This document shows positions 14,342 to 62,957 of a stretch of 64,000 nt of DNA, one piece after another. Position numbers and translations under genes: made by a program. Under the pieces are notes generated by a model. The model was not told the DNA's origin. It made no database searches and saw nothing but the letters and a program-made list of their open reading frames with translations. Location of the stretch: positions 69,752 to 133,751 of the forward strand of contig JBBQZW010000002.1 of NCBI GenBank assembly GCA_038207395.1, read 5' to 3'. Every line of letters starts with the position of its first letter. The first letter of the stretch is position 1. Source of the stretch: Minisyncoccia bacterium (GTDB lineage: Bacteria > Patescibacteriota > Minisyncoccia > Phycocordibacterales > Phycocordibacteraceae).

Positions 14342-14343
14342 AA

Positions 14344-15330: not shown

Positions 15331-15393
15331 GCCTACAGTATAGCGCCCCTCAGGATATCTTTAGCCACCACACGCCGTACATATGGGTATTAG

Positions 15394-15852: not shown

Positions 15853-15862
15853 ACCAGACTAG

Positions 15863-17686: not shown

Positions 17687-17698
17687 ATAAAGTAGTAG

Positions 17699-18331: not shown

Positions 18332-18337
18332 AGAGAG

Positions 18338-18751: not shown

Positions 18752-18799
18752 TAGTTAGTAGTATACCGCACGGCTGAAACGAATATTAAAAACCTGTAT

Positions 18800-19345
18800 C
18801 TAATGGCCACCTCCACTAGGTTTCTTTTTTGGGGCGCCCCCTCCTCCTCCCCCACCTGCACCAAGTACTTTTTCCGAACCCGCCTTTAGTCCGCTGAACG
18901 AGAGTGCAATAGTTGCGACAAAAGCACCCAAGGCCAATTTCGCACCTCCCCACAGAAATGTACCGACCTTCTTAAAAAGGCCACCGAATTTTGTTTCTTT
19001 GCCAGAATGTATTGTGGTAGACCCAATTCCTGATGGAGGCTGACCTCCGCTACCCACTTCCGATGGAGTTGTAGTGGGGTTTGATACTGAATTTATAGTT
19101 TCTGTGGTCTGTTTTGGGGTAGATTCAGAACTTGCTGACTCCCTTGGCCCTATTGTCTCAGGAAAACTCTCATCTGAACCTAATGTATCTAAGTGTTCTT
19201 TAATTTCTGCAATCTTTTCCTCAGTGGAAATTACGTCATTAATAATCTCATTATCATTAACTGCCTCAATTTTTTGCACCTCACTCTCAGTCATTGGAGT
19301 AAGGTTTTCTGAAGCACTTGCATTAATTTTTCGTAAAGATTCCAT
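18800..19345 (-). CDS. hypothetical protein with acidic N-terminus, C-terminal TM and Gly-rich tail
   Basis: Part of the co-directional cluster. No recognisable family. Confidence 0.4.
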   Translation of the reverse strand: MESLRKINASASENLTPMTESEVQKIEAVNDNEIINDVISTEEKIAEIKEHLDTLGSDESFPETIGPRESASSESTPKQTTETINSVSNPTTTPSEVGSGGQPPSGIGSTTIHSGKETKFGGLFKKVGTFLWGGAKLALGAFVATIALSFSGLKAGSEKVLGAGGGGGGGAPKKKPSGGGH

Positions 19346-19356
19346 AGTACGCTTTC

Positions 19357-20160
19357 TTATATAGTATTCCGATACGGGTCAGTTTGGTATGGAGTATCAG
19401 CTTGCACGGGGCGCAACGGTCGTTCTTCTAGAGGTTTTGACTCGGTGATAATAGGTTTAATTTCTGGAGTTGAAAACACTGGATACTGAACTGGTGGTGG
19501 TGACGTAAATGGAACTGAAGAAGTCTGAAATGAGCGAGCAGGAGTTGTCTGCATAGGATGCTGTATTGCTGCCATATCACTACTCATTGTTCTAATGGCA
19601 GGAAATTCCATAGCTGGAGGGTTAGAAACAATCGATGGGATTTCTCGATTTATAAGATTGTAAGCGGGTGGCGGCACGGGGATAGGTTTAATTTCTTGTC
19701 GTGCTTCAACACTTAATACTGGTACCTGAGGCGCAGGCGGAACACTCGTTTGGGTGGGAGGTGCCTGTGGTGGTGTGGGAGCGATGTTAAAAGAAGGATC
19801 ATACTCAGCCTCAGGCTCATCCTCTTCAGGGGTATTCAACGTATCGGCTCCCTCTCGGATTCGCTTTTGTAGTGGTTGAAAGATCTCTTCATTAACTTTT
19901 TTAACAATACCCGTCGCATCATTTGCTCCGATCCCGAGATCAAGAAGGCCTTGATAAAATGTGGCCGGATCAACTAAGCCGAGTAACATAAATCCAAGGT
20001 CTTCAGCAATTTTACCGGTCACATCAACATGCAAGTTGTAGCTAGACTGAACGCTTTTTATCACTTGTATAGTTGCATCGCTTCCCATCGCCTCACGAAC
20101 AATGCGGGGTGCGGTTTTATAGGCTTGAATAAATTGATCCCTGTTCAACAATTGAGGCAT
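19357..20160 (-). CDS. proline-rich hypothetical protein
   Basis: 267 aa. Second half is Pro-rich (PTPPQAPPTQTSVPPAPQVP...). Confidence 0.4.
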   Translation of the reverse strand: MPQLLNRDQFIQAYKTAPRIVREAMGSDATIQVIKSVQSSYNLHVDVTGKIAEDLGFMLLGLVDPATFYQGLLDLGIGANDATGIVKKVNEEIFQPLQKRIREGADTLNTPEEDEPEAEYDPSFNIAPTPPQAPPTQTSVPPAPQVPVLSVEARQEIKPIPVPPPAYNLINREIPSIVSNPPAMEFPAIRTMSSDMAAIQHPMQTTPARSFQTSSVPFTSPPPVQYPVFSTPEIKPIITESKPLEERPLRPVQADTPYQTDPYRNTI

Positions 20161-20161
20161 G

Positions 20162-22459
20162 CTATGACCAGTATGCCATACCCGCAGGGCTTGTTAAATA
20201 ATCAACAGTAGTTTTGGTGCCATACTTTTCAATTTGAGCCTTAATTCTCTTTGCTGCTGAATCATCAATTTCATTACGCTCCTGTATTGCTGCAAGTATT
20301 TTTGGCGTTAGGACCCGAGCAGCTGCTTCTGATTCCAACACCTCTGATTTAAGTCGCGCTGCTTGTTTAGGGTTCAGTTTTGCTATCTTTGCTACAGCCG
20401 CAGCCACATCAGTTGGGCTTGTAGCTTCTGCAAACGCAGTATTTGTTAGTTCAACAGGATCAAACTGTCGTACTTTGCGGGCAACACCCGGGCTTAGTTT
20501 CCCACCCCTAAGAAGATCGTCTCGTTGTGCGTTAGTGAGAGAGCTTGTTATAAAATCATCAGTAAGGAGGGTTGAAGGACTATTTTCTAGGTCTTTAGCG
20601 GAGTATTTTTTAATACGATCCTTGATGGTTTTCTGTGCAACACCCTTCTCGGCTGGTGTTGTAGTCGTGCTTGTGATAATTGCTTGTTGGTCACGTATAT
20701 CCTTAAAGCGAGCTTCTTTAATTACTCCCTGCTGCTGTACGGTAAATGCTCCCCCATCTTTTACTAATGCAGCAAACTTCTCTGGAGACAGGTTCTGTAC
20801 AAGTGCATCAAGATCTTTCCCTGACTTCTTCATTAGATCTAGTTCTTCTAACTCCTTGGTGCTTAAACGCTCAAGAATTTCCGCGACACGGTTATCCTTT
20901 GAAGTGCTTTTAGGTAGCGATAACGCAGAATCAAGTTCTGACCTAAGATTTGCCTTGCGTCCAATCTCTCCAAACACCTTATCTCGAGCCTCTTTCTCAG
21001 CCTTCTTCTCCTTAAAGGATGCTCCGCTACCAAAACGAGCATTTTGACCCGCCTTAAGAGTTCCTGATATTGCCTTATCAATAGGGCTATTAGAGATAAA
21101 GTTACGTACTCCCTTAGGTGCCTTTCCGACCAAAGATTCATATTTCTTCTGTGCATATACGCTACCCTTGCCGATTGTCGACCTCCCTGCGAAACCACCC
21201 GCAGCACCATACGTACCTAAAACTATTTTTTTAGAAAAACCTATTGCTCCTGCGGCTCCTGCTGCTCCCAAACTTTTGGCAGCCACAAGCGAAGCAACTA
21301 AGAAGCCAATGACAATCGTAAAGATCATTATAGTTCCCATTGCTGAAGCATCAGGGCTCGTAATTGCACCAGCTAAACCAACAGCGGTTGTGCCCGAACC
21401 GCCCGTGATGAAACCATCAGTAATTTTTAAACTTATAAAAAGAAGAAGGAATAAAACGGGTGCAAAGAATGCTTGAGAAATAAGCTTGCTCCACCAGTCA
21501 TTTGCAAATCTGCGAAGTGGAGGAATTGCCATACCTGCAAATCCAATTGGAGCAGAAACCATAAGAAAACTTAAAACAACAACTCGAATAACTAACATAA
21601 TTGCAGCCGCAAACATAACGATGGCACCAATAGTTGAAAAAAGAGCCAAACCTATAAAGGTCACTGCCTCAACACCAAGGTTTCCGTTTACCTTAAAGAG
21701 TGACGCAAGACCGGTGGACTGCATTATGTGACCCGCTATACCGTAATCAACAATACACTTCGCGTCCTGTTCAGAAATCCCGACAGCACTAAATATACCT
21801 CCGCTAATATCTAAGCAAGGGTCAGTATTTGCTTGAGAATAAAATACAGAACTAAGTGCATTTGAAGTGTCTATAACAGCCTCTGCAGCAAACAAACTAA
21901 AGTTCATAAGAACAGCGAAGATAAGTAGCTGAGGTATTGCTTTTCGGGTAGGAAAACTATGGAGATCCAATATTGTTGCGAGACCCATAAAAATAAAACC
22001 AAACAAAAGAAGCATGTTTCCTATATCACGCATGATCCCCCATGCGAGCAAGAGACCAGGGGAATTACCGATTAAATTACCAAATTGAAAAACTGTTTTA
22101 ATTACTACCCAGTTCAAAAGTGCTCCGGCTACTCCCAATAAAAGATTTGCAAACGTTAATATAAATCCCGCAACAGTCTTTAAAAGACATGAACCTAACG
22201 TAAAGAAACTATCACAACTGTTAGTTGCGTTGCCCGCTGGGGGAGGTGTGCTATTGGAGGCTGGTTTCGCATTTGGATCAGCGCTTCCTAAATCAGCTTG
22301 TCCGGCTGAAGTACTTGCAACATTGGTCGGAGAAGAGGTGCTAACTTTTTGAGGTGCAGAAGATTGGGCACTAGCGCTCGAAGGTTGATACGCGAAAAAT
22401 AAAATGAGTAAGAAAATACCACCTACTACTGAAAGACTTCTGCGCGTAAATCTCGCCAT
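20162..22459 (-). CDS. VirB6/TrbL-like polytopic membrane protein with long charged C-terminal domain
   Basis: Signal peptide plus Ser/Pro-rich stretch, then at least 6 TM helices over about 300 aa, then a roughly 330 aa hydrophilic tail. This architecture is typical of VirB6/TrbL-type channel proteins. Confidence 0.45.
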   Translation of the reverse strand: MARFTRRSLSVVGGIFLLILFFAYQPSSASAQSSAPQKVSTSSPTNVASTSAGQADLGSADPNAKPASNSTPPPAGNATNSCDSFFTLGSCLLKTVAGFILTFANLLLGVAGALLNWVVIKTVFQFGNLIGNSPGLLLAWGIMRDIGNMLLLFGFIFMGLATILDLHSFPTRKAIPQLLIFAVLMNFSLFAAEAVIDTSNALSSVFYSQANTDPCLDISGGIFSAVGISEQDAKCIVDYGIAGHIMQSTGLASLFKVNGNLGVEAVTFIGLALFSTIGAIVMFAAAIMLVIRVVVLSFLMVSAPIGFAGMAIPPLRRFANDWWSKLISQAFFAPVLFLLLFISLKITDGFITGGSGTTAVGLAGAITSPDASAMGTIMIFTIVIGFLVASLVAAKSLGAAGAAGAIGFSKKIVLGTYGAAGGFAGRSTIGKGSVYAQKKYESLVGKAPKGVRNFISNSPIDKAISGTLKAGQNARFGSGASFKEKKAEKEARDKVFGEIGRKANLRSELDSALSLPKSTSKDNRVAEILERLSTKELEELDLMKKSGKDLDALVQNLSPEKFAALVKDGGAFTVQQQGVIKEARFKDIRDQQAIITSTTTTPAEKGVAQKTIKDRIKKYSAKDLENSPSTLLTDDFITSSLTNAQRDDLLRGGKLSPGVARKVRQFDPVELTNTAFAEATSPTDVAAAVAKIAKLNPKQAARLKSEVLESEAAARVLTPKILAAIQERNEIDDSAAKRIKAQIEKYGTKTTVDYLTSPAGMAYWS

Positions 22460-22462
22460 AGG

Positions 22463-23938
22463 TTATGTACCGTTTGAACTTGTAACACCACAATTTTTTG
22501 AAAGAGTTATCATCTTGTCATATAGATTTTTTGAACCCGATGTATCCTGACTCTGTATACCTGCCTCAGCTATCTCTGATGCATTAGGGATTTCTGGTGA
22601 TGAGAGATATGACTGGTAGTTAGCAAGTGCGGAGGTTATTACGGTGCCCTTAGAAACCGAGGTGCTTTGGGAAGCTCCCTCAACTTCACTTTTAATTGAT
22701 GCAATTTTTGTTAGCGCCGCATCCCCTTTTGCCACACCAGCTGTAGCTTGATCAATTACAGCAGAGACATCAGGTCGTACACCGCAGGTAGTTTGAGCAT
22801 TAGTTGCTGCGCTTAAAATTTTCTGCCAGTTATCACGGAAAGAAGATACGTTTGTCTCGTCATTTTTGATGTTTTGAATAACTCCACTAGCAAGACTTGA
22901 GTTAACCGCATCATACTGAGTTGGGCTCGTTGCTGCTTCCAAAGGAGAACGTCCTCCGCCAGCAGAAGGCTGTGATGCACCAAGAAGTCCTCCTGCTCCC
23001 AGAACTTGGTTTACTAACTGTCCCAGCAACGCTCCAACAATTTCGTTGATAGAGTCAGCAAGTTCAAGCTGGCGAATTCCCGAGCCAAGACTGTTCTCAA
23101 GCTGACTCTCAATAACTGAGCCAGGGGTTCGTACTGCGTTGAAGAGACATTTCTCTGTCTTAGACAGTGCTACAGAAGCATCACCACCAGAGGTAGACTT
23201 ATTACAACTACCTCTCCATGGAAGAAATCCCTTACCCCACCCAAGCTCAGCTTTGCGCTGCTGTGCTGCAGAATCAATCTGCGCAAAGAGCTGATTGCTT
23301 GCAAGCTGGTATGCGCCGAATGGATTATTCGCAGGATTCTGACTTGCTGATAGAAAGGCACTAATACCTCCTTGATTGAAGTCACCATTTAAGAATGCTT
23401 TAGGGTCCTTGCTTTGCTGATCTAGAGTGTAGTTCAGACCCCAACTACTAGTAGTACGATAATACTCTTCACGAAGCTTCTGGCTTATTTGATCTTGAAA
23501 AGGAGACTTTATATCAAATCCAGTTGCACTAACAACAGTATTATTTAGGTTATTAATAAAATCATCTGCTATAGCGTCTCCTAAGTATTGAAGATTACTC
23601 CTCAAATCACTTACAAAAGAAGGCGATCCGCTAAAGCCCGAATTAATCCAATTCACCGTACTTCGTGTCAGAGATTGGATAGTTAGTTTCGCAACAGTCC
23701 ATGCAAGACCGTTCAATGCGTTTAAAATAACGGTTTGAGTGACTGTACTTGCACCTGTTGCAACGACTCCCGCAACAACGGCAGGGTTAATTTCAAATGA
23801 GAGACCTCCAAACTGAGCGTGTGCTTTAGGTACTGAAACAATACTAAAAGGTGTGTATGACGCAGTAATTGCAATAACAAGACTGATTGCAACAGCTCTG
23901 ACTGAAATATTCTTTAGCCGGTTAGTTTTGTAGATCAT
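22463..23938 (-). CDS. secreted hypothetical protein (T4SS-like cluster)
   Basis: Signal-anchor at the N-terminus. 491 aa, Ser/Ala/Gln-rich. Confidence 0.4.
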   Translation of the reverse strand: MIYKTNRLKNISVRAVAISLVIAITASYTPFSIVSVPKAHAQFGGLSFEINPAVVAGVVATGASTVTQTVILNALNGLAWTVAKLTIQSLTRSTVNWINSGFSGSPSFVSDLRSNLQYLGDAIADDFINNLNNTVVSATGFDIKSPFQDQISQKLREEYYRTTSSWGLNYTLDQQSKDPKAFLNGDFNQGGISAFLSASQNPANNPFGAYQLASNQLFAQIDSAAQQRKAELGWGKGFLPWRGSCNKSTSGGDASVALSKTEKCLFNAVRTPGSVIESQLENSLGSGIRQLELADSINEIVGALLGQLVNQVLGAGGLLGASQPSAGGGRSPLEAATSPTQYDAVNSSLASGVIQNIKNDETNVSSFRDNWQKILSAATNAQTTCGVRPDVSAVIDQATAGVAKGDAALTKIASIKSEVEGASQSTSVSKGTVITSALANYQSYLSSPEIPNASEIAEAGIQSQDTSGSKNLYDKMITLSKNCGVTSSNGT

Positions 23939-24942
23939 TGTGTTTCAGCTGAGCGTGCAATACTCACAATCACTGACCCAGCAGTTCCGGCAGCAGGCTC
24001 CCCGCTTGAGAGGATGACTGTAGCGATATCTTTAAATCCTTTTACCACCAAAACACTAGATGGTTGGAAGTTAGACAACGCACCCATGAACGCCAAAGGA
24101 TCTTTTTCATAGGTTACCGCTGAAGCAGATGCTTTGTGTAGCTGATCAAATCCTCTAACAAGCTCAAGATGCTGATTCGCAAGTTGAGGAGGAATTCTAA
24201 GATCAAGAAGATCCTTAGTTATTGATGCATATGATTCTGAAAGCCTTTTAATCTTTGGGCGTGCTGACTCATCATTTTTCTCAATCAATGCTTCAAGAAG
24301 CGGGATAGGTTGATTCGCGTCAGCTGGAACATCGTTTGTTCGAAGTACTCCTTCAACTGAATCAGCATACGCAGTTATAGAAACACTTGGGTCTGTGTGT
24401 AGTGAAATGGTTGTGTAGGTTGAACCGTATAGAGCAGATGCTTTAACGGTGAACTCCCCTAAAAGCTTAAGAGCAAGTGCTTGCTGCTGCTCTGGAGTGA
24501 GAGGCTGACCCCTGCTCGCATCAAGATATTTCTGGAGAAACTCCTGAGAGAACTGTTCGGTAATACTTCCAGGAGCTGGATCAACCCCAGGAAGATCTGC
24601 GGCAGTAAGGGTGGTGGTTCCTTGTTCGCCGCTTGGGAGCTGTGAGGCTGCAGTTTGAGGGGTTAGTTTCCCTTCCTTTGCTGCCTGACCGTCAGGAATG
24701 CCGAATGAATTACTTATTGCTTTGTTTGGGTCAGTGCCATACAAAGCTTCCTGCCAATCAGGAAGACCGTCGCCATCAGTATCTTTTGCAGCGTACGCCT
24801 TAAGGAGTTCTTCAGTACTGCCAGCGTTTGCAAATTTCTGACTAAAGAATGAAGGTCCGGACAGTAAGTACGCACTACTTACCATGAGGAGTGCGAGTAA
24901 TGAAGCAGCACTAATGCGAAGTGTACGTTCGGGGATCTTCAT
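23935..24942 (-). CDS. secreted protein with thrombospondin-type-3-like Ca-binding motif (first gene of the cluster)
   Basis: Signal peptide. DTDGDGLPDWQEALYGTDP matches the DxDxDGxxDxxE TSP3/OmpA-type calcium-binding repeat. Confidence 0.4.
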   Translation of the reverse strand: MKIPERTLRISAASLLALLMVSSAYLLSGPSFFSQKFANAGSTEELLKAYAAKDTDGDGLPDWQEALYGTDPNKAISNSFGIPDGQAAKEGKLTPQTAASQLPSGEQGTTTLTAADLPGVDPAPGSITEQFSQEFLQKYLDASRGQPLTPEQQQALALKLLGEFTVKASALYGSTYTTISLHTDPSVSITAYADSVEGVLRTNDVPADANQPIPLLEALIEKNDESARPKIKRLSESYASITKDLLDLRIPPQLANQHLELVRGFDQLHKASASAVTYEKDPLAFMGALSNFQPSSVLVVKGFKDIATVILSSGEPAAGTAGSVIVSIARSAETQ

Positions 24943-29235: not shown

Positions 29236-30762
29236 TTACTCAAACCCTAGGAGTCCTCGGGGACGATACTGAAGTGCCTCCAGAATATGCGCTGGTTCTA
29301 CATACTCCGCCTCCGCCAAGTCAGCTATTGTTCGTGCAACGCGTAAGGTGCGATGAAAACTTCTCGGAGAAAGAGATAGTTTTCGTGCGTAGGTAATAAG
29401 AACTTCTTTAGATTGTTTGAGAATTATTTTTTCAGTAAGCTCATGCGCTAGAAGATACGCGTTGGCAAATCCAAAGTCCCCTGCTCTCGTCTCACTTGCG
29501 CTTCGCGCTCGTTGTACTCGCTTGCGGACATCATCTGAAGATTCAGCTGACGGCATAGATGTAAGCAGTTCATGGGATATATGAGGAACTTCAACCCACA
29601 TATCGAGACGTTCCACTATGGGTCGTGAAATTTTTCGTGCCTGGCTACGTGCTTTTCGTACTATGTCCGCACCCGCACCCACAAGTGTCTCAGCAGGATT
29701 CATTGCTGCCACCAGCATGAAATCTGCGGGGAATGTTGTGGTACCTTTCGCACGCGAGATAGTGACGACTCTATCTTCAAGAGGTTGTCGTAAGACCTCA
29801 AGCGTACGCGAATCAAATTCAGGAAATTCATCCATGAAAAGAATTCCTTTGTGCGCGAGCGTTACTTCTCCTGGACGCGGATACCCTCCGCCCCCTAGTA
29901 TGGCTGTCGGTGAGACCGTATGGTGGGGTGCGCGAAATGGTGGATAGTAAAAAGCTCCTTCCAGAGGTAATTCACCTCCTGCTGAGTGAATAGCCGTAAC
30001 CTCCAGACGTTCTTCTTCAGAAAGTGGCGGTAAGAGTCCCGGTAGTGCACGCGCTAACATTGTCTTCCCTGTTCCTGGAGGGCCGTACAGTACAATGTTG
30101 TGTTTTCCTGAAGCAGCTATCTCGAGAGCTCTCTTTGCACCCTCCTGGCCTTTAATATGTTGCAAATCTACTGTCAGAGGAGGCGCACTCACCGAACTTC
30201 TCCTTTCTACGGGGGAAAGAAGTCTCTTTCTTAAGAGGTGGTCAGTAAGCTCACTAAAAGTCGATACGGAGTATACAGATATCCCGTTCACGAGGCTCGC
30301 CTCGTCTTCGTTTTTCTTCGGTACAAATATGTAATCAATTTCCTCCTTCAAGGCAGCGGTGATCTGAGAAAGTACTCCGCGAACAGGACGCACTGCGCCG
30401 TCTAGTCCAAGCTCACCAATAAATAAGATGGGTTTTTGAGATGCGGGAATTTCTCCAGCCGCCATAAGATACGAAACAGCGAGAGCAACATCATAGTGTG
30501 AACCTTCTTTTCGTAAGCTTGCAGGAGAAAGAGAAAGTACAATCCTTTTATTAGTTGCCTTTGGCGAAGGAAAACCAGAATTTCTTATTGCACTCGCGAT
30601 GCGGTCCCGCGCTTCATCAACTGCCTTGTCTGCAAGTCCCACTATCGAGAATGCATGTAGACCATGAGACAGATCAGCTTCAACACACACAAGCTCAGCC
30701 CCTGCCCCATACGGCTGTGCTGCATAGACACTCGCGTACCCACCTTTTCTTACGTATGGCAT
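29236..30762 (-). CDS. YifB/ComM family Mg-chelatase-like AAA+ ATPase
   Basis: N-terminal Lon-like/ChlI domain, Walker [10 protein letters not shown]-terminal Mg_chelatase_C. 508 aa. Confidence 0.85.
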
Positions 30763-46008: not shown

Positions 46009-46231
46009 AGGTTCAATATTTAGTTTTGTGCACGCAAATAATTTTTTTGTGTAAGCTGTCTCTCGCACATTTATATAAAATGCCCGCGGGTGCGGACATT
46101 TCAGACCTTAAAAACATACCATAAATAGGGAGGTGTGGTCAATAAGACCAGCACAGCAGAAGTACCATCTCTTTTTTGTTCCCCCTATTCACGCAGACGC
46201 TTTTGCAATGCTTCGGTATACTGTAAGAAGC

Positions 46232-47983
46232 ATGCAAGTCTCTGAAAGCGAACTCAAAAATTTCATCCTTGATTCCGGACTCGTGTCACGGAAGGATGTT
46301 GAAGCTGCCGACGAAGAAGCAAAGACGCGTAAGCAGTCTATAGGTGATGTATTGGTATCTGGAGGCATTCTCTCAAGTGATGCCCTTCGTCGCATCAAGG
46401 CGTACGTCCTTGGAATTCCATTCGTGAATGTGAAGGATATGAAGATCCCGTTCGAAATCCTTTCACTCATTCCAGAGCCGATAGCCCGTACCCACAGCAT
46501 TATTGCGTTTAAGAAATCAGACACTGAACTTGAAGTAGCGATGCTCGATACTGAAGACCTGCCGGCTATTGATTCAGTACGTAAGAAAACAGGACTAAAG
46601 ATTCTTCCACGACTTACGGATGATGAGTCAATAAAGCATGCACTCCTTTTGTATCAGAAATCTCTCAAGGAAGAGTTTGGTGATCTTATAACCACAGAAG
46701 CAGGGAAGCTTAAGGTGGTTTCTGAGAATCCTGATGGAGATGCTTCAGGTGAGGACCTTAAAAAGATGGCAGAAGATCTTCCCATTGTACGTATTGTGGA
46801 TACGCTTCTTCGTCACGCCATAATCCAAGGTGCTTCTGATATTCATATTGAGGCCCTTGAGCAGGAAGTACTTGTCCGTTACCGCATTGACGGTATTCTT
46901 CATGACGCCATGACGCTCCCTCGTGCTGCTTCGGCGGGCATCATTGCACGTATTAAGGTGTTGGCGAACCTTAAGCTCGACGAAAAGCGTTTGCCTCAGG
47001 ATGGTCGTTTCAAAATGGAAACAGATGGAGATAAGGTTTCATTTCGTGTCTCGCTCCTACCGACCTATTACGGAGAGAAGATCGTCATGCGTCTTCTTCG
47101 TGAAACAGGGGAGGGCTTCACACTCGACGTTCTTGGACTCCACGGCGCTCCACTCGAACGAATTCACCAAGCCATGCGTCAGACAACAGGAATCATTCTT
47201 ATTTCTGGTCCAACCGGTTCTGGTAAGACGACCACGCTCTATACTATTTTGGACATACTTAATACTCCTGATGTAAATATTTCAACAGTAGAAGATCCGA
47301 TCGAATACCAGATGAAGCGCGTAAATCAAACGCAGGTTAATCCTGTTATTGGATTTACGTTTGCGCAGGGTCTCCGTGCCCTTCTTCGTCAGGACCCAAA
47401 CATTATTATGGTTGGGGAGATTCGAGATGCGGAGACTGCCTCACTTGCTATTAACGCAGCCCTTACGGGTCACCTCGTACTCTCGACTATTCACACAAAC
47501 TCAGCTGCTGGAGCAATCCCTCGTCTTATGGATATGGGTGTTGAGCCATTTCTCCTCGTCTCAACGCTTCGTCTTGTGGTCGGTCAGCGTTTGGTTCGAA
47601 AACTCTGTGATGGAAAAGAACCCTATACGCTTGATAGTGTTGCGCGGGATAAGGTGGCAACCGATGAGAAATTTAAATGTGCGCTCGCAGCCCTTACCGA
47701 AGAAAAGCTTATAAAAGAGGGAACGACTCTTGATACGGTCCCATTTTACAAACCTATGCCCTCAGCAGAATGCGAAGACGGCTACCACAGCCGTATAGGA
47801 ATCCACGAAATTCTTACGGTTTCACCCGCTATACGTGATCTAATCCTTCACGGTGGAACCCCCGACGCTATCGAAGCACAAGGACGGAAAGAAGGAATGC
47901 TTACCATGCTCGAAGATGGCCTATATAAGAGTGCGCGTGGCATCACCAGTCTTGAAGAAGTACTACGCGCCGTATCTGAGTAG
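46232..47983 (+). CDS. pilB: type IV pilus assembly ATPase PilB/GspE family
   Basis: GSPII_E N-domain. Walker A LISGPTGSGKTTTL, Asp box, Walker B, His box. Tetracysteine-like C-terminal region. Start at the ATG at 46232 (RBS AAGAAG). Confidence 0.85.
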   Translation: MQVSESELKNFILDSGLVSRKDVEAADEEAKTRKQSIGDVLVSGGILSSDALRRIKAYVLGIPFVNVKDMKIPFEILSLIPEPIARTHSIIAFKKSDTELEVAMLDTEDLPAIDSVRKKTGLKILPRLTDDESIKHALLLYQKSLKEEFGDLITTEAGKLKVVSENPDGDASGEDLKKMAEDLPIVRIVDTLLRHAIIQGASDIHIEALEQEVLVRYRIDGILHDAMTLPRAASAGIIARIKVLANLKLDEKRLPQDGRFKMETDGDKVSFRVSLLPTYYGEKIVMRLLRETGEGFTLDVLGLHGAPLERIHQAMRQTTGIILISGPTGSGKTTTLYTILDILNTPDVNISTVEDPIEYQMKRVNQTQVNPVIGFTFAQGLRALLRQDPNIIMVGEIRDAETASLAINAALTGHLVLSTIHTNSAAGAIPRLMDMGVEPFLLVSTLRLVVGQRLVRKLCDGKEPYTLDSVARDKVATDEKFKCALAALTEEKLIKEGTTLDTVPFYKPMPSAECEDGYHSRIGIHEILTVSPAIRDLILHGGTPDAIEAQGRKEGMLTMLEDGLYKSARGITSLEEVLRAVSE

Positions 47984-48020: not shown

Positions 48021-49235
48021 ATGAAATTTAGCGTCACGGTGCACACCACTGAAGGAGAAGACCAGACATCAGTAATGGAAGCGGAGAACCGTTTTGAAAT
48101 TTACTCTAAGGTAGAAAAGAGTGGGGGAGCCGTCACAAAACTAGAAGAAGTTGGCTCGTCTCTCGAACTACCAAAGTGGATGAATATCCGTTTTGGAAGT
48201 GGTATAAAGACCGAGACACGTATTACGTTTACAAAGAACCTCTCCGCAATGCTTGGGGCAGGGCTTACGCTTTCCCGGGCTCTTTCTGTTATTGAACGCC
48301 AAGCTACAAATAAATATTTCAAGGAAGTCATTCAGAAACTTCAAGAAAGCGTAAAAGCTGGTTCTGGATTCCACGAATCATTAGCGCTCTATCCTGCTAT
48401 TTTCTCACGTTTGTTTATCGCGATGACAAAAGCTGGAGAAGAATCAGGAAAACTTTCAGATACTCTTACCGTGGTGGCGCGTCAGATGGAGACATCGAGT
48501 AACTTAACGAAGAAAGTTAAAGGAGCGATGATCTACCCGGGAATTATTCTCTCAGCGATATTCATTATAGGTATCCTCATGCTTATGTTTGTGGTGCCAA
48601 CACTTTCAAGCACGTTCCGCTCTCTGGGTGTTGATCTTCCACTTACGACACGCATTATTGTTTCTTCTTCTGACTTTGTCTTACACAATTCTCTTATTGT
48701 TCTTGGAGGAGTGGGAATCTTTATAGCACTTGCGATAGCTGGTGTACGGAGTGAAAAGGGAAGTAAGGCGGTGCTCTTTGCGTCACTTCATATACCGGTT
48801 ATTGGGGAATTGGTTAAAGAAACGTTCAGTGCGCGCGCAGCGCGCACCTTATCTTCGCTTCTTTCTTCTGGAGTGGAAATGCTAACCGCCATAACCATTG
48901 CCGCTGAAGTAGTCGGGGAAAATGTTTTTGGAGGAGTTCTTAAAGAAGCTGAGGAGCTTGTCCGCAAGGGAGAGCCACTTTCTGCTGCCTTTGATTCACA
49001 TCACGAACTATTTCCAATTTTCGTATCGGAAATGATTTTAGTTGGAGAAGAAACGGGAAAGGTGGCAGACATGCTTGGTCAAGTCGCTGAATATTATGAA
49101 AAAGATGTTGATGAAAAGACTAAAGATCTCTCAACAATTATTGAACCAATCCTCATGCTCTTCATTGGAGTATTCGTTGGTGTGTTCGCACTCTCTATGA
49201 TTGCTCCTATTTACTCACTCTCAAGCAAGATTTAA
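48021..49235 (+). CDS. pilC: type IV pilus platform protein PilC/GspF family
   Basis: Two T2SS-F repeats, three TM segments, 404 aa, immediately after pilB. Confidence 0.8.
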   Translation: MKFSVTVHTTEGEDQTSVMEAENRFEIYSKVEKSGGAVTKLEEVGSSLELPKWMNIRFGSGIKTETRITFTKNLSAMLGAGLTLSRALSVIERQATNKYFKEVIQKLQESVKAGSGFHESLALYPAIFSRLFIAMTKAGEESGKLSDTLTVVARQMETSSNLTKKVKGAMIYPGIILSAIFIIGILMLMFVVPTLSSTFRSLGVDLPLTTRIIVSSSDFVLHNSLIVLGGVGIFIALAIAGVRSEKGSKAVLFASLHIPVIGELVKETFSARAARTLSSLLSSGVEMLTAITIAAEVVGENVFGGVLKEAEELVRKGEPLSAAFDSHHELFPIFVSEMILVGEETGKVADMLGQVAEYYEKDVDEKTKDLSTIIEPILMLFIGVFVGVFALSMIAPIYSLSSKI

Positions 49236-56732: not shown

Positions 56733-57151
56733 GTCAAACGTGCGCGAATTTCTTTTGCTATTTTCTGAGCCTCTTCCTGGTTATATTCCTGGTGGGGCCA
56801 GAATTCGAATTCACTTCGGTTATGACGGGGAATGATGTGCATATGTAAGTGATAGATAACCTGACCTGCTTCAGGCTCGTGGTTAGAGTTTATGTGGACC
56901 CCTTTAGCTCCCACCGCATCACGTACGGCAGGTGCTATTTTGCGTACCGTTTCCATAACTGCAGCAAGTGTCTGTGGGTCTACGGTAAAAATATTCCGTG
57001 TTGGTCTCTTTGGAATAACTAACGTGTGTCCGGGGGTTGTTGGAGCGGTATCCAAAAAAGCGACGGTATATTCGTCCTCGTATACGATTTCACTCGGTAC
57101 GTCGCCCCGAGCAATCCGGGCAAAGATGCCCTGTTCTCCTTCGATTTCCAT
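56729..57151 (-). CDS. HIT family hydrolase
   Basis: GHTLVIPKRP...HLHMHIIPR histidine triad. Confidence 0.7.
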   Translation of the reverse strand: MEIEGEQGIFARIARGDVPSEIVYEDEYTVAFLDTAPTTPGHTLVIPKRPTRNIFTVDPQTLAAVMETVRKIAPAVRDAVGAKGVHINSNHEPEAGQVIYHLHMHIIPRHNRSEFEFWPHQEYNQEEAQKIAKEIRARLT

Positions 57152-57193
57152 AGCACAAGTATAGCGCACCGTATTTTGATATACTGCTTAGTA

Positions 57194-58924
57194 ATGTTCT
57201 CTCTCCATGATCCGATAGACAAAGATGTTCGCGAAGCGCTTAAAGAACACGACGACTACACTGCTGCACTTTTATCACGCCGGGGTGTTACCACTGCGAA
57301 GGACGCAGATGCATTTCTGTCGCCTTCATATGATGATCACATCGGAGATCCTCTTTTGATTCTTAATATGGAAAAAGCGGCGCGCCGTGTGGCGAAGGCT
57401 ATTGATTCTCAGGAACGTATTACGGTATGGAGTGATTATGACTGTGACGGTATTCCTGGTGGGGTTGTACTGCACGATTTTTTAAAGAAAGCTAAGGCGA
57501 ATTTTACAAATTATATTCCCCATCGTCACCTTGAAGGGTACGGTTTGAATAAAGATGGTATTACAAAACTCGCTAAGGAAGGAACAACACTCCTTATTAC
57601 GGTAGATTCTGGAATTACTGATGTAGATGAGGTTGCATACGCAAACTCTCTTGGTATGGAAGTAATTGTTACCGATCACCATCTTCCGCAGGAAGTTTTA
57701 CCCCCAGCGTTTGCGGTTATTGATCCGAAGCAGGAAGGTGAGACATACCCGTACCGTGATTTTTGTGGGGGAGGGCTTGCGTGGAAACTTTCATGTGCCG
57801 TGCTTGCTGTAGGGTTTACGGGGCGCGAACTCATTACGCCAGGGTGGGAGAAGTGGTTGCTTGATATGGCAGGACTTTCAACGATTGCGGACATGGTGCC
57901 GCTCACCGGAGAAAATAGAGTCATTGCGAAATATGGCCTACTTGTAATGCGGAAATCGCGTCGAATTGGTTTACAAAAATTGTGTACCGTTGCGCGTGTT
58001 ACCCAGCGCTTCATTACCGAAGAAGATGTTGGTTTTATGATTGCACCGCGTGTGAATGCGGCGAGTCGTATGGGAAATCCGATGGATGCTTTTGAATTGT
58101 TTACGACTGAAGACGAGATACGTGCAGATGAATTAGCGAAGGAATTGGAAAAGATAAATAGGTCACGCCGCGCCTCCGGCGCGGCAGTTACCCGAGCCGC
58201 TCACGAACGCCTGGAAGAGCGAAAACTCACCGGCGAACTTCCTGCTGTCATCGCCATGGGAGACCCTGACTGGCGTCCTGGACTTTTAGGACTTGTTGCA
58301 AATTCACTCGCCGAAGAATACGGAAGGCCGGTATTTTTATGGGGGCGTGAAGGAGGAACGACTGCAAAAGGATCGTGTAGAGCGGGCGGAGGTATTTCAG
58401 TAGTGGCACTCATGCAGGCAGCATCAGGCGTGTTTGAAGATTTTGGTGGCCATACGGCATCAGGCGGGTTTACCGTAAAAGATGATCAGATATTTACGTT
58501 CGAGGAGCGATTGTGTGAGGCGCTTACAACACTTCCTCCTGACGACCGTGGAGAAAAAGTGCGGTATGCAGATCGAGAGATAGTCCAGAGTGCTATCTTA
58601 AAACAGGAATTGGCTCGTACGGAAAAGTTTGCACCGTTCGGTATGGAAAATCCAAAACCGGCATTTTTATTGCGTGATATCAAAATACATAAAATGTCCT
58701 GGTTTGGAAAAGGAGAAGAGCATCTCCGCCTTGCTCTCGTAAAAGATGATGGTTTTCAAGAAACGCCGCTTGAGGCTATAGCGTTCTTCGCACGTCGTGA
58801 TCTCGGTACTGCACTTCAAACTCTTCCGAACCGTACCCACATAACTATGCTTGGTCATCTGGAACGCGACACTTTTACGAAGGGTCAGCCGGTGAGACTC
58901 CGTATCATTGCGATTGCGCCATAA
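57194..58924 (+). CDS. recJ: single-stranded-DNA-specific exonuclease RecJ
   Basis: DHH motifs (DYDCDGI, ITVDSG, VTDHH) and DHHA1 domain. Confidence 0.8.
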   Translation: MFSLHDPIDKDVREALKEHDDYTAALLSRRGVTTAKDADAFLSPSYDDHIGDPLLILNMEKAARRVAKAIDSQERITVWSDYDCDGIPGGVVLHDFLKKAKANFTNYIPHRHLEGYGLNKDGITKLAKEGTTLLITVDSGITDVDEVAYANSLGMEVIVTDHHLPQEVLPPAFAVIDPKQEGETYPYRDFCGGGLAWKLSCAVLAVGFTGRELITPGWEKWLLDMAGLSTIADMVPLTGENRVIAKYGLLVMRKSRRIGLQKLCTVARVTQRFITEEDVGFMIAPRVNAASRMGNPMDAFELFTTEDEIRADELAKELEKINRSRRASGAAVTRAAHERLEERKLTGELPAVIAMGDPDWRPGLLGLVANSLAEEYGRPVFLWGREGGTTAKGSCRAGGGISVVALMQAASGVFEDFGGHTASGGFTVKDDQIFTFEERLCEALTTLPPDDRGEKVRYADREIVQSAILKQELARTEKFAPFGMENPKPAFLLRDIKIHKMSWFGKGEEHLRLALVKDDGFQETPLEAIAFFARRDLGTALQTLPNRTHITMLGHLERDTFTKGQPVRLRIIAIAP

Positions 58925-58980
58925 CCAGTTTCGTAAGAATATACATCTACTTTTTTGCTTCGAACCGCTATACTGGGTGA

Positions 58981-59403
58981 ATGCAATTTACGCTCTATGC
59001 TGACGGCGGTTCGCGCGGTAATCCTGGACCAGCCGGTTCTGGCTCAGTTGTTTTTGATTCGTCAGGGAAACGGGTTGTTGAAGTGGCTGACTATATTGGT
59101 ATTACCACCAACAATGTTGCTGAATATGAAGCTGTTTTACGGGGTCTTACGAAATTAAAGGAAACGTACCCCGAAGGGTATTTTAATGATGTTGAGTTAC
59201 TTGTTCGCTTAGACAGTAAACTCATCGTTGAGCAAATGAAAGGTGCCTATAAGGTGAAACACCCCAATCTTATCCCACGATACTTACAGGTGAAGAATAT
59301 TATTGCACGCTCCTTTCCGCATGTTTCGTTCGAACACGTGCGACGGGAGTTCAATAAGGACGCTGATGCGCTAGCAAATAAGGCGATGGACAAAGGAGTA
59401 TAA
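58981..59403 (+). CDS. RNase H-like (RNase HI/RVT_3-type) protein
   Basis: YADGGSRGNPGPAGSGSV...NNVAEYEAVLRGL...DADALAN carries the RNase H catalytic D/E/D pattern. Confidence 0.7.
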   Translation: MQFTLYADGGSRGNPGPAGSGSVVFDSSGKRVVEVADYIGITTNNVAEYEAVLRGLTKLKETYPEGYFNDVELLVRLDSKLIVEQMKGAYKVKHPNLIPRYLQVKNIIARSFPHVSFEHVRREFNKDADALANKAMDKGV

Positions 59404-59470
59404 GAAACTCAGTATTACCTGAAAAGTTTTTGAAGAATATTTGATTAGGTGGTGTGTACAGTAGAGACCG

Positions 59471-61066
59471 ATGCGAAGCATCGGTCTCTACGTATTTGTG
59501 TCTTCATACTCCGCGATGATCGCGGCAATACTTCTAGTACACTCTTATGTTCTCCTTGTAGGGTACTGCACGTCTATTGTGGTGCTTGGTGTTCTCATTG
59601 CTCCGCGAACACAAATACGTATTCGCGGAATACTACTCCTGCTATGTTTTGGAATGGTAGTTGCCGGTACTCGAATGCTGTTTGTTGAGGATCAGATCCC
59701 TACGCCATTCAGCGATGAATTTAATATTCCTGGTTCGCTCGTGGGTACCGTAATCACTCTTCCTGATCTACGTGAAACAAGTACGCGCCTTACAGTGCAC
59801 CTTAAGCGTGGTGAAGATATAACAAACATTATTGCCTCTGTGCCTTTGTACCCCAAAATAAATGTTGGAGACTCTATAAAAATACAGGGAACTTTAAAAA
59901 AGCCAGAACCATTTGAAACAGACGGAGGGCGCACGTTTCAGTACGATGCCTTTTTGCGTAAGGATGGAATCTTTGGCGTCATACAGCCGGCGTTTGCAGA
60001 AGTGATTGGGCATAGTAATCATCCCTGGTTACGTTTTCTGCGCATACTTCAATCAATAAAAGATACGCTTATGAAGTTACTTGCGACTGCACTACCGGAA
60101 CCTGAGAGCTCTCTTGCCGCAGGACTTATTGTAGGAGGGAAGCAAGGTCTTGGAGAGAGATTAATTACTGATTTTACAAAGGCCGGCATGCTTCAGATTA
60201 TTGTACTCTCTGGGTATAACGTGATGATTGTCGCCACTATTCTGATGCGGCTACTCAGTTCATTTCCTAAGAACATATCTTTCATGGTAGGTATCACGAG
60301 CATTCTTTGTTTTGTCCTTATTGCAGGAGCTGGTTCGTCAGCGTTACGCGCAGGTCTTATGGCTTTCTTTTCTATCACGGCCAGTACGTTCGGGAAACGA
60401 TATGACGTTCTCCGCGTTCTCTTCGTTTCATTATTTCTTCTTGGTCTTTGGAATCCACTTATGCTGATATATGATCCTGGCTTTCAATTTTCCTTCATTG
60501 CAACGCTTGGACTTATTCTCCTTGTACCCATACTTACTCCCTGTCTTCTCTTTTTACGAAACACGACTCTTATTGAACTCACTGCCACTACGCTCGCAGC
60601 GGAGATCATGCTGCTACCGTTACTTCTTTGGCAGACAGGAAATCTTTCTCTCGTTTCCGTATTTGCGAACGTGGTGGCGATGCCTGCAGTACCTGCTGCG
60701 ATGGGTTTTAGCGTACTTGCGGGAATGCTTGCATTTCCGTTTGAACATATTGCACCTGGACTTTCTGTTATTGCAGGGCTCCCCGCATACATACCACTCA
60801 CCTACATTATAAAAGTAGCGACGCTGTCAGCGTCGCTACCGTTCGCACAGATCACCATTCCTGCTTTTTCGTTCTGGGTAGTGGTAGTTTCGTATTCTGT
60901 AATCGGTGTGCTGATATATCGTTTCTCTACACTGCCTCATCGAGGAAACGACTTTCTACAACCTGCCAGTTTAGGTTTTCAAGAAATGCCTCTACGTACG
61001 TCTTCTTGTCCGCTGGCTTGTAGTCAACCATGTAGGCATGTTCCCAAAGATCCACCGCAAGCATAA
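59471..61066 (+). CDS. comEC: ComEC/Rec2 competence protein, DUF4131 plus Competence transmembrane part
   Basis: Multi-TM. DFTKAGMLQIIVLSGYNVMIV core competence-domain motif. The last about 45 codons overlap sodA antisense and are probably not ComEC proper. Confidence 0.7.
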   Translation: MRSIGLYVFVSSYSAMIAAILLVHSYVLLVGYCTSIVVLGVLIAPRTQIRIRGILLLLCFGMVVAGTRMLFVEDQIPTPFSDEFNIPGSLVGTVITLPDLRETSTRLTVHLKRGEDITNIIASVPLYPKINVGDSIKIQGTLKKPEPFETDGGRTFQYDAFLRKDGIFGVIQPAFAEVIGHSNHPWLRFLRILQSIKDTLMKLLATALPEPESSLAAGLIVGGKQGLGERLITDFTKAGMLQIIVLSGYNVMIVATILMRLLSSFPKNISFMVGITSILCFVLIAGAGSSALRAGLMAFFSITASTFGKRYDVLRVLFVSLFLLGLWNPLMLIYDPGFQFSFIATLGLILLVPILTPCLLFLRNTTLIELTATTLAAEIMLLPLLLWQTGNLSLVSVFANVVAMPAVPAAMGFSVLAGMLAFPFEHIAPGLSVIAGLPAYIPLTYIIKVATLSASLPFAQITIPAFSFWVVVVSYSVIGVLIYRFSTLPHRGNDFLQPASLGFQEMPLRTSSCPLACSQPCRHVPKDPPQA

Positions 61067-61523
61067 TGGGAAGTCCTGAAAGTTGTCCGAGTTCATGGTC
61101 ATTTACCCATGCCGTATGAAGGGTGCGTCCTTTTGGATCAAAATACACAATGACCCAGCCGATACCACGCGTGCCTGCAACTTCCTTAACATGAGCAATA
61201 AAAGCACCCCAACTTCCATACTTTTCAGTTGCGGCATCAGCAAACGGTGCGTTCGTGTCAGCTCCTTGAGCACCATTTTCAAGCTGCTCAAAATAATATT
61301 CATGCATACGCATCCCATCAAATTCAAATCCAAACCGACGACGCAGTTCGTTCATGGTGTACATACTTTCTTCGGTACCTACGGTACGCAATTTTTCGAT
61401 TTGATCCATGATCACATTCGTATGCTTTACATATCCCTCATAAAGCTTAAGATGCACATCAATTTGATCTTTAGAAAGACCTTTCAATTCGGGGAGGTTA
61501 AATGTTCGTGCAGTGTACGTCAT
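60927..61523 (-). CDS. sodA: Fe/Mn superoxide dismutase
   Basis: N-terminal helical hairpin. C-terminal DLWEHAYMVDY metal-ligand motif. 198 aa. Confidence 0.85.
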   Translation of the reverse strand: MTYTARTFNLPELKGLSKDQIDVHLKLYEGYVKHTNVIMDQIEKLRTVGTEESMYTMNELRRRFGFEFDGMRMHEYYFEQLENGAQGADTNAPFADAATEKYGSWGAFIAHVKEVAGTRGIGWVIVYFDPKGRTLHTAWVNDHELGQLSGLPIMLAVDLWEHAYMVDYKPADKKTYVEAFLENLNWQVVESRFLDEAV

Positions 61524-61573
61524 ACAAAAATGGGTAAGGGGTATGTACTAAGTATAACGGAGGGAGTGATGAT

Positions 61574-62449
61574 ATGCTCGTGAATAGTATGAAGCGCTAT
61601 TTCACCATTCCGTATATAGCTGTTTTGATACTTATCGGACTAAATGGCTATGTGTGGTTTTCGTACAGTCATAAAGAAACTCCTTATCTACGCGTATCAG
61701 TACTAGATATCGGCCAAGGAGACTCTATTCTCGTACAAGGTCCGACAGGCGTGCAAATGCTGGTGGACGGAGGGCCTGATCGCTCCGTTCTCCGGGAACT
61801 CCCCAAAGAAATGGGGCTTTTTGATCGTTCTCTTGATTTAATAGTTGAAACCCATCCAGACAAAGATCATATTGCCGGACTCACTGATGTCTTTAGCCGC
61901 TACTCAGTTTCGTATTTTCTTCGCCCTGATCTACTAGGTACCACTGCAACTGCAAAAGGTCTTGATCAGGCCGTGAGTGTCGAACCAAACATACACACGT
62001 TCATAGCACACAGAGGAATGCGCATTCATCTTGGTGGGGGAGCATATGCAGATGTTCTATATCCTGACAGAGACGTTTCACGGCTCCCAACGAACGATGC
62101 TTCGGTTGTAATGCGGATTGTGTATGGCACCACCTCTTTTATGCTTACCGGCGACGCACCTTCAGTTGTTGAGGATCATTTACTATCAGTCGACGCTGTC
62201 GATGGTGAACTTCCCACAACAGTTCTTAAGGCAGGTCATCATGGTTCGAAGTATTCGACAAGCGAGGCGTGGCTTACAGCACTGCACCCACAGTACGTTG
62301 CCATTTCTGCAGGAGCGAATAACCGGTACGGTCACCCAAACCCTGATGCTGTTGGTCGTATTAAAAATGAAAGCGCAAAAATCCTAAGTACGATAGACCA
62401 AGGCACTATTCGTTTTGTAAGTGATGGGAAGGGTGTGACGGTTAAATAA
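61574..62449 (+). CDS. ComEC-type metallo-beta-lactamase domain protein (separate ORF)
   Basis: Signal-anchor, then VSVLDIGQGDSILVQ...HPDKDHIAGL...TGDA...AGHHGS MBL motifs, as in the ComEC C-terminal domain. Confidence 0.7.
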   Translation: MLVNSMKRYFTIPYIAVLILIGLNGYVWFSYSHKETPYLRVSVLDIGQGDSILVQGPTGVQMLVDGGPDRSVLRELPKEMGLFDRSLDLIVETHPDKDHIAGLTDVFSRYSVSYFLRPDLLGTTATAKGLDQAVSVEPNIHTFIAHRGMRIHLGGGAYADVLYPDRDVSRLPTNDASVVMRIVYGTTSFMLTGDAPSVVEDHLLSVDAVDGELPTTVLKAGHHGSKYSTSEAWLTALHPQYVAISAGANNRYGHPNPDAVGRIKNESAKILSTIDQGTIRFVSDGKGVTVK

Positions 62450-62497
62450 AAACTCTTGCACACCTTTCGGTGCGCAAGAGCAAGATAATCCAATCAC

Positions 62498-62848
62498 TTA
62501 TTCTTGAAAGAGTCGCCGGAAGAAAGAAAAGCGTCTTTGTTTTTTAGACATAATTCGGCTAAGGACTGACACAATAAATACGGTTCGTTTCCGATCTTCG
62601 TGCCAGGCTTTAAGTAATATGTAGGCTGCCCGTGCTGATGCTTCATCAAGAACAATAGTTGCTACTCGTTTTGTTCCTTCTCGTGTTATCAAATTCTCAC
62701 GAATAAGACACCCTTGTTCGACGTGATCTCGTATAATCGGTCTGCGAAACGACATCGCAACCAGATCACCCTGATGTTCTTGTAGTTGTGCTGAGCGTCC
62801 TTCACCCATTCTTACGATACTGGTTGGAATTTTCACCCATTCACTCAT
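62498..62848 (-). CDS. hypothetical protein
   Basis: 116 aa, basic C-terminus. No recognisable domain. Confidence 0.35.
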   Translation of the reverse strand: MSEWVKIPTSIVRMGEGRSAQLQEHQGDLVAMSFRRPIIRDHVEQGCLIRENLITREGTKRVATIVLDEASARAAYILLKAWHEDRKRTVFIVSVLSRIMSKKQRRFSFFRRLFQE

Positions 62849-62957
62849 TACTGGTTCCTTTGTAGCTGATTACTCCGAGCAGAACCGTATCATGTTCACA
62901 GAAATACTCCAACCCGATCAACCTATTACTAATGACTTGTAGTGTAAGCTCATATAT

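Follow-up and report, generated by a model that had tools for sequence, protein, structure and literature searches.

The 64,000-nucleotide stretch of Minisyncoccia DNA analyzed here (the window) contains a locus at which the modules of the DNA-uptake channel ComEC are distributed over two plus-strand genes. The first gene (comEC-N) encodes the membrane-channel part and the second a metallo-beta-lactamase (MBL) domain preceded by a hydrophobic helix. Between them, a gene for an iron/manganese superoxide dismutase (SOD), here called sodA, is located on the opposite strand (Table 1). An earlier note on this DNA had proposed such an arrangement from the open reading frames (ORFs), and we recovered every one of these ORFs at its position. 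The statement that ComEC comes in two collinear pieces with an opposite-strand sodA between them is borne out by the ORF map and by the domain matches.

Table 1. Genes and other features of the comEC locus (positions are those of the window; aa, amino acids; CDS, coding sequence)
Feature	Position	Strand	Evidence or remark
recJ (single-stranded DNA exonuclease)	57026..58924	+	TIGR00644 recJ, 463 bits, above cut-off; DHH, DHHA1 and RecJ_OB domains
rnhA-like RNase HI gene, 140 aa	58981..59403	+	PF13456, 69 bits; PF00075, 36 bits
Start-codon hairpin, 14-bp stem and 3-nt loop, GTAGAGACCGATGC-GAA-GCATCGGTCTCTAC	59461..59491	+	Terminator-like scan; comEC-N start codon (59471) in 5' arm
comEC-N, 531 aa	59471..61066	+	PF13567 DUF4131, 39 bits; PF03772 Competence, 144 bits
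Internal hairpin, 12-bp, GC-rich, followed by TTTTATAATG	60814..60840	-	86 nt past the sodA stop, within the comEC-N CDS (encodes VATLSASLP)
Convergent ORF overlap, 140 nt	60927..61066	both	Last 45 sense codons plus stop of sodA against last 46 codons plus stop of comEC-N
Fe/Mn SOD gene (sodA/B-type), 198 aa	60927..61523	-	PF02777, 70 bits; full-length alignment to 1b06
ComEC C-terminal module as a gene of its own (TM11-like anchor plus MBL), 291 aa	61574..62449	+	PF00753, TIGR00361
13-bp hairpin with T-run	62452..62481	-	Terminator-like scan; directly after the stop codon of the MBL gene

Profile searches of the comEC-N ORF placed DUF4131 at residues 25-171 (cut-off 31.6 bits) and the Competence domain at residues 219-484 (cut-off 23 bits), and no MBL domain was detected in this ORF with the Pfam and NCBIfam profiles. 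Three hydrophobic segments precede the OB fold, as in the ComEC structure solved by cryo-electron microscopy (cryo-EM), and residues 131-469 match residues 144-474 of a solved full-length ComEC of 801 aa (30bt_A). The start methionine and the peptide MRSIGLY that it opens are kept in the homologues. The last hydrophobic segment ends at about residue 485, which corresponds to nucleotide 60925 or thereabouts, and the stop codon of the SOD gene is reached from position 60927 on. The earlier observation that the final ComEC helix stops almost where SOD stops is thus correct. From these features, comEC-N is predicted to encode transmembrane (TM) helices 1-3, the extracytoplasmic OB fold and the Competence channel through TM10.

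For the second ORF, the best NCBIfam match is TIGR00361 (ComEC_Rec2, model positions 434-663). Residues 17-286, which include the N-terminal hydrophobic helix, match residues 513-789 of 30bt_A (E 4e-29), and the ORF also aligns to an isolated ComEC MBL domain (9ic4). The catalytic motifs are intact, with HxDxDH (THPDKDH), the single Asp (LTGD) and HHGS, and GHP is matched as well. The first of these motifs is the same as the H598-x-D600-x-D602-H603 variant of the characterized ComEC nuclease, for which catalytic function has been demonstrated (PMC12455585). The protein has a single N-terminal hydrophobic helix (residues 10-28 or so), and a Lys-Arg pair before this helix is consistent with an N-in/C-out orientation that would place the nuclease outside the membrane. 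The earlier note had read the helix as a signal-anchor of a possibly independently exported protein. A membrane helix of its own is indeed present, but since this helix aligns to TM11 of canonical ComEC, the product of the second gene is most likely a membrane-anchored subunit rather than a secreted enzyme.

Where the break between the two genes falls can be judged from the cryo-EM structure of the fused protein (PMC13539106). There, ComEC has 11 TM helices, of which three precede the OB fold, and TM10 and TM11 are separated by a short helix in the cytoplasm. The channel is lined by TM4-9, whereas TM10 and TM11 are peripheral; TM11 is mobile and is not seen in the map of one protomer. A flexible linker carries the periplasmic MBL domain, whose position is set by a small contact area with the OB fold. 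The alignments of our two ORFs to 30bt_A together cover the fused protein with neither gap nor duplication, and this places the break in the cytoplasmic TM10-TM11 loop. The alignment with full-length ComEC that the earlier note had recommended thus gave a clear domain boundary.

We next consider the distribution of this arrangement. The best 120 homologues of each gene were inspected, and among the GTDB species representatives, in which 555 genomes carry a relative, the best 79 loci were examined (loci of relatives are numbered with an L). The best 120 homologues of comEC-N share 42-100% identity with it and are 438-548 aa long, and in none of them (0/120) was an MBL domain present; those that carry a taxon name belong to Parcubacteria, Paceibacterota or Patescibacteria. 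Conversely, of the best 120 homologues of the MBL ORF, all but one are stand-alone and 230-302 aa long, the exception having 378 aa, and several bear the JGI label 'competence protein ComEC'. An exhaustive search of 1.8 billion cluster representatives retrieved 2,819 relatives of the MBL ORF at E <= 1e-30. Among the best 150 of these 2,819, nearly all are stand-alone proteins of about 250-310 aa, and five full-length ComECs (787-818 aa, 39-45% identity) are interleaved with them. As a rule, the closest relatives encode a TM+MBL protein of about 285 aa that stands alone.

The gene neighborhoods gave a similar picture. Down to 42% comEC-N identity, they share the order (tpiA)-pgk-HIT-recJ-(small ORF)-rnhA-comEC-N-sodA(antisense)-MBL, and the core of this series, from recJ over rnhA, comEC-N and antisense sodA to the MBL gene, was found in most of the 79 species-representative loci. 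The SOD gene is convergent with comEC-N and abuts or overlaps it in 68 of the 79 loci; in four it lies more than 150 nt away and in seven it was not found in the locus. Downstream, a full-length MBL gene is present in 40 loci and a short MBL-like ORF in 10, and in 19 of the 79 no MBL gene was found within the available flank. Thus, the split and the placement of sodA, for which the earlier note had suggested a check of related genomes, recur in most species representatives. What that note had called an unusual gene architecture is typical of the lineage, as 120 of 120 ComEC-N homologues lack the MBL domain and the order is kept in most loci. Because the same layout is found across the relatives, the split is a vertically inherited trait of a large clade and not a quirk of the genome from which the window derives. 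In the closest JGI relative (L001), a serine recombinase with Resolvase and Recombinase domains and a Rep-like gene follow directly 3' of the MBL gene (7993-10295, minus strand), which suggests an integrated element where the window has other genes.

These data also bear on the trivial explanation that a single comEC gene was broken by a frameshift, a mis-assembly or recent pseudogenisation. Canonical ComEC is a single polypeptide, and neither of our ORFs alone reaches the TIGR00361 equivalog, which expects all modules on one chain (57 bits for comEC-N and 96 bits for the MBL ORF against a cut-off of 190). However, the two ORFs are kept apart by a complete, conserved SOD gene that runs in the opposite direction, and a systematic error cannot create a 597-nt antisense gene. 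Moreover, neither ORF is disrupted, both are conserved among the relatives (42-70% and 50-81% identity), and dozens of independent assemblies, which derive from different samples, show the same layout. A frameshift or assembly error that joins the two ComEC ORFs, which the earlier note had named as a possible refutation, is refuted by the intervening sodA and by the comparative data, and we consider the chance of any such artefact as negligible.

A more serious objection is that the second ORF may encode an unrelated MBL hydrolase, such as a secreted scavenging nuclease, a defence protein or a beta-lactamase-like enzyme, which is located near comEC by mere coincidence. The ORF has its own start codon with a Shine-Dalgarno-like GGAGGGAG upstream and an anchor of its own, and its weaker NCBIfam matches include Avs1a and a B3-like lactamase. 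Furthermore, some relatives carry the MBL gene 0.6-2 kb from sodA with other genes in between, and in others it is degenerate or absent. On the other hand, by far the best matches are ComEC C-terminal modules including the preceding TM helix, and full-length ComECs are interleaved among the closest relatives. The first gene ends exactly where the ComEC homology of the second begins, so that the two cover the fused protein completely and without duplication, and the linkage between comEC-N and the MBL gene is conserved. We therefore regard an unrelated hydrolase as unlikely.

Taken together, these data indicate that the DNA-uptake channel ComEC is encoded here in the two-gene form that is typical of the lineage, in the genome of an ultra-small Paceibacteria member (Parcubacteria, candidate phyla radiation (CPR)), and we assign a probability of roughly 75% to this reading. 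The essential absence of a ComEC-MBL fusion from CPR bacteria is already known from Meheust et al. (2019) (PMC6744442). In the literature, we found no account of the detached module as a neighboring TM-anchored gene nor of the sodA insertion, and the papers that we found report only that the fusion is absent. What appears to be new is descriptive and comprises the linked TM11 + MBL gene, the conserved antisense sodA, a labile overlap after terminator loss, nuclease decay and two conserved hairpins.

The decay of the nuclease is seen in Kaiserbacteria-type relatives, in which the ORF that follows comEC-N or sodA is short and measures about 150-180 aa (L038 6317-6817, L047 6353-6850, L050 2987-3484, L053 2365-2862, L057 6868-7359 and similar). 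This ORF has kept the TM11-like helix and the first half of the MBL fold and has lost HxDxDH (e.g., LTNNKSAS in its place). Judged by these residues, its product is predicted to be a catalytically dead remnant of the nuclease module. Three loci that lack SOD (L038, L047, L052) have the beginning of the short MBL-like ORF overlapping with the region of the comEC-N stop; in L038 and L047, this overlap measures 4 nt.

The SOD gene between the two halves encodes a protein that aligns end to end with solved Fe/Mn SODs (best 1b06, E 1e-24). The His/His/Asp/His ligand positions are conserved in this alignment (dvH, mHeyy, vDlweHAY), the N-terminal domain scores below the Pfam cut-off (17.6 vs 27 bits) and the product has no signal sequence. 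By these criteria of sequence, sodA qualifies as a bona fide gene of a predicted cytoplasmic Fe/Mn SOD. Beyond synteny, we found no evidence for a functional tie between SOD and ComEC or competence, and a paper on CPR bacteria from groundwater, which lists both SOD and ComEC genes, draws no link between them. Most simply, sodA is a passenger in a compact, highly syntenic region.

A regulatory function of the antisense gene would be a different matter. In this scenario, comEC-N and the MBL gene would be co-transcribed through sodA in the antisense direction, and induction of sodA by oxygen stress would collide with this transcript or silence it, and the reverse. In the lineage of the window, there is no strong plus-strand terminator between comEC-N and the MBL gene, and thus the two halves may be co-transcribed. 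Alternatively, the MBL gene may have a promoter of its own, for which candidate -35/-10 elements are present at 61426-61453. If the scenario held, DNA uptake would be coupled to the redox state, and the channel subunit would be gated a second time, at translation, by the hairpin at the comEC-N start codon. We consider it very improbable, and the view of sodA as a passenger is preferred.

The convergent ends of comEC-N and sodA overlap, and the length of about 140 nt given in the earlier note corresponds to 60927-61066. Since the last TM helix ends at about 60925 and the SOD stop codon lies at 60927, the strand opposite the 3' end of the SOD gene encodes the 46-residue tail of ComEC-N, in agreement with the note. 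In the 68 loci with convergent genes, the ends of comEC-N and SOD, measured from stop to stop, are separated by up to 124 nt or overlap by up to 97 nt, with recurrent overlap classes of 4, 8, 47, 70, 73, 79, 85 and 97 nt. The overlap amounts to at least 40 nt in 38 of these loci, and two relative reading frames are used. A class of 131-140 nt is found only in the sub-clade of the window (51-70% comEC-N identity). In relatives with about zero overlap, a hairpin that is preceded by an A-run and followed by a T-run (-25 to -35 kcal/mol) is located 10-20 nt past the SOD stop in the last codons of comEC-N, and this element has the form of a shared bidirectional terminator. The clade of the window is devoid of this hairpin and of the native comEC-N tail of about 20 residues, and the SOD stop abuts TM10. 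Because the shared hairpin, the native tail and its stop codon were lost, the comEC-N frame runs 46 codons into the antisense of sodA until it meets the first stop. The 140-nt overlap is thus best described, from this comparison of sequences, as the long end of a labile junction series and not as a designed feature.

It may be argued that the 46-residue tail is a functional, overprinted cytoplasmic extension under selection or that the overlap is kept for antisense regulation between sodA and comEC. In fact, the 131-140-nt overlap persists in every examined member of the sub-clade. The divergence of SOD at synonymous third positions, expressed as the ratio of the last 45 codons to the rest, was 0.81 in the overlap clade and 1.01 in non-overlap controls, which hints at a small extra constraint, although the pairs are non-independent and the effect is small. 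However, the junction varies from -124 to +140 nt and employs two relative frames across the lineages. When the window was compared with L001, the SOD residues in the overlap were 100% identical and 13 of the 15 nucleotide differences fell on SOD third positions, whereas only 33 of 47 residues of the ComEC tail were identical. Pro, Ser, Arg and Cys are abundant in the tail, which matches no Pfam family. Selection for the tail or for the overlap is thus improbable, somewhat more so than an unrelated hydrolase. In our view, the tail arose as a by-product when the junction was compacted, and we claim no function for it.

Two of the hairpins at the locus are conserved. The first, which embraces the comEC-N start codon, has a calculated stability of about -25 kcal/mol and is kept in related loci (L001 4991-5021, L004 5003-5027, L007 4995-5017, L011/L012 4988-5024). 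Synonymous changes in its coding arm (ATC GGT CTC TAC / ATC GGC CTT TAC / ATT GGC CTC TAT) are matched by changes in the non-coding upstream arm. In an alignment of 10 sequences, seven of the 14 base pairs change on both sides and 89% of the cells are paired, as compared with 31-46% when the partners were slid, and none of 500 shuffles reached the observed score. The tail after the 14-bp stem (GTATTTGTGT) is weak. The hairpin occurs only once in the window, which rules out a repeated element. As likely candidate functions, it may terminate transcription that reads through from rnhA and/or block translation by occluding the start codon, and the conserved MRSIGLY peptide has probably been shaped by the hairpin.

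More distant relatives (L015, L017, L022, L023, L045, L047, L058, L072, L074, L075, L079, L082) have another conserved hairpin, GCGAGCGG-loop-CCGCTCGC with a T-run behind it, of which the variants GTGAGCGG/CCGCTCAC occur. It is located some 30-60 nt past the extrapolated start of comEC-N (e.g., L017 4958-4984), within the first 25 codons or so, where the peptide reads GFASGxFLRSLF. This element looks like an intrinsic terminator or an attenuator within the coding sequence.

The second conserved hairpin of the window lies inside comEC-N (60814-60840) and is identical or nearly identical in L001, L087 and L088, where a T-run follows, and in L004 and L089-L091, where the T-run is missing. Other overlap lineages (L027, L045, L069, L076, L078, L079) have hairpins of different sequence over a similar A-(A/S)-L-P-x-A (xAALPxAA) peptide, apparently at the same position of the protein. 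This hairpin is the best candidate for the intrinsic terminator of sodA, and we consider such a function probable. An Rfam scan of 58500-62900 found no family for either hairpin, and its sole match was a sub-threshold chance hit to McaS (23 bits vs cut-off 42). The third hairpin, which follows the MBL gene on the minus strand, is tentatively assigned as terminator of a convergent downstream gene (62498-62848) and would mark the 3' boundary of the locus.

At its 5' side, the locus is preceded by recJ and rnhA. In related loci, recJ is kept 5' of rnhA as the first gene of the conserved block; its real start is probably downstream of the listed GTG, as judged by relatives called at about 576 aa. 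The product of the rnhA-like gene is 70-97% identical to the proteins at the equivalent position in relatives. The earlier note had combined both genes with comEC to a competence module. This over-reads the synteny, because recJ and rnhA share the conserved block with tpiA and pgk, as well as with a HIT gene. Conserved synteny is the better description, and recJ and rnhA are housekeeping genes in this block. The interval between them comprises only 56 nt in the window (58925-58980), whereas relatives have an ORF of 84 aa (up to 118 aa) without Pfam match at this place (L001 4177-4431, L004 4197-4451). The short interval is a further sign of local compaction in the lineage of the window.

The type IV pilus genes, which the earlier note had invoked for a DNA-uptake system, are indeed encoded in the window (PilB 46133-47983, PilC 48021-49235), but they are about 10 kb away, beyond housekeeping genes. 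A ComM/YifB-type Mg-chelatase-like AAA+ protein, which belongs to a competence-associated helicase family, is encoded at 29236-30762 (minus strand). In L004, the same gene is located 2.5 kb 3' of the MBL gene, which indicates a rearrangement of this region in the genome of the window. A type IV secretion-like cluster is located at 13343-24942 (minus strand). It includes a protein with a type IV secretion system (T4SS) pilin domain (13343-14341), a TraG/VirB4-type P-loop ATPase (15863-17686) and several large ORFs without Pfam match (12028-13332, 14344-15330, 20162-22459, 22463-23938), and presumably it corresponds to the previously described T4SS of Patescibacteria. Finally, dnaN and dnaA are adjacent at 7874-10597 (minus strand), and from this adjacency the window probably includes the chromosomal replication origin, at around 10.6-11.3 kb.

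If the locus is a two-gene ComEC, its two polypeptides would insert into the membrane separately, and TM11 would tether the nuclease beside the channel. The interface between the OB fold and the MBL domain would then orient the nuclease over the channel entrance, so that one DNA strand might be degraded and the other imported as in the one-piece protein, with DNA captured by the type IV pilus encoded elsewhere in the window. At the level of the genome, sodA would be carried between the two halves as part of the long, vertically inherited block tpiA-pgk-HIT-recJ-rnhA-comEC-N-sodA-MBL, and sodA is probably terminated by the hairpin inside comEC-N.

Several points weigh against this model. The assembly of the two products is deduced only from homology to the fused protein. 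In vitro, the nuclease was more active when OB fold and MBL domain were on one chain (PMC12455585), and thus the split could lower the activity. Distant relatives have a short ORF (about 165 aa) that lacks HxDxDH, or no MBL gene within the available flank, and therefore the nuclease is not indispensable to the channel everywhere. The product of the second gene could also act independently, for instance as a general surface nuclease for nucleotide scavenging. As to the hairpins, their tails are only moderately T-rich, and the terminator assignments are therefore tentative.

The two-gene ComEC is of interest for several reasons. Imported DNA or nucleotides are assumed to be a necessity for CPR bacteria, and a survey in which 'ComEC without nuclease domain' counts as a domain loss would misread genomes of this type, where the module is encoded by the neighboring gene. 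For the mechanism of ComEC, the cut between TM10 and TM11 in a very large and diverse clade constitutes an evolutionary experiment on where the nuclease can be detached from the channel, and this natural cut suggests practical split constructs. The later decay of the module to a short, catalytically dead remnant would bear on the cooperation of OB fold, channel and nuclease, which is a topic of current structural work. For the study of genome compaction, the locus illustrates a process by which convergent ORFs may come to overlap over long distances and terminators to reside within coding sequence. The result is incremental and descriptive and does not overturn current understanding.

When compared with known systems, the locus shares the three modules and their order with canonical ComEC/Rec2 (e.g., Bacillus subtilis ComEC and the solved proteins 30bt and 9vc6). 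It differs from them in that two genes, broken in the cytoplasmic TM10-TM11 loop, flank an antisense sodA. The domain profile of comEC-N is exactly the 'DC' profile (DUF4131 + Competence, no Lactamase_B) of Pimentel & Zhang (2018) (PMC6299819). It is likewise exactly that of the CPR ComEC family fam000603 of Meheust et al. (2019), who report unfused ComEC in 86% of CPR genomes and a fusion in only six (PMC6744442). In both papers, as far as read, the MBL domain is treated as absent or unfused, whereas here it persists as a neighboring TM-anchored gene in synteny, which has decayed in some lineages.

Convergent gene pairs with a bidirectional intrinsic terminator are a second point of reference. 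The relatives have a strong A-/T-flanked hairpin between or at the ends of comEC-N and sodA. In contrast, in the window this terminator has been lost, the genes overlap by 140 nt and the candidate terminator of sodA resides inside comEC-N.

That degradation of the non-transported strand need not be fused to the channel has precedents in Streptococcus pneumoniae, with ComEC and EndA, and in Helicobacter pylori, whose ComEC lacks the MBL domain. The pneumococcal EndA is a separate membrane-bound nuclease (PMC12455585), and in a cultivated CPR bacterium, a Saccharibacterium, comEC is needed for transformation (PMC10633639). By analogy, both observations would back a two-subunit model. The difference is that the trans-acting nuclease of the window would be the MBL module of ComEC itself, with its native TM helix, and not an unrelated enzyme.

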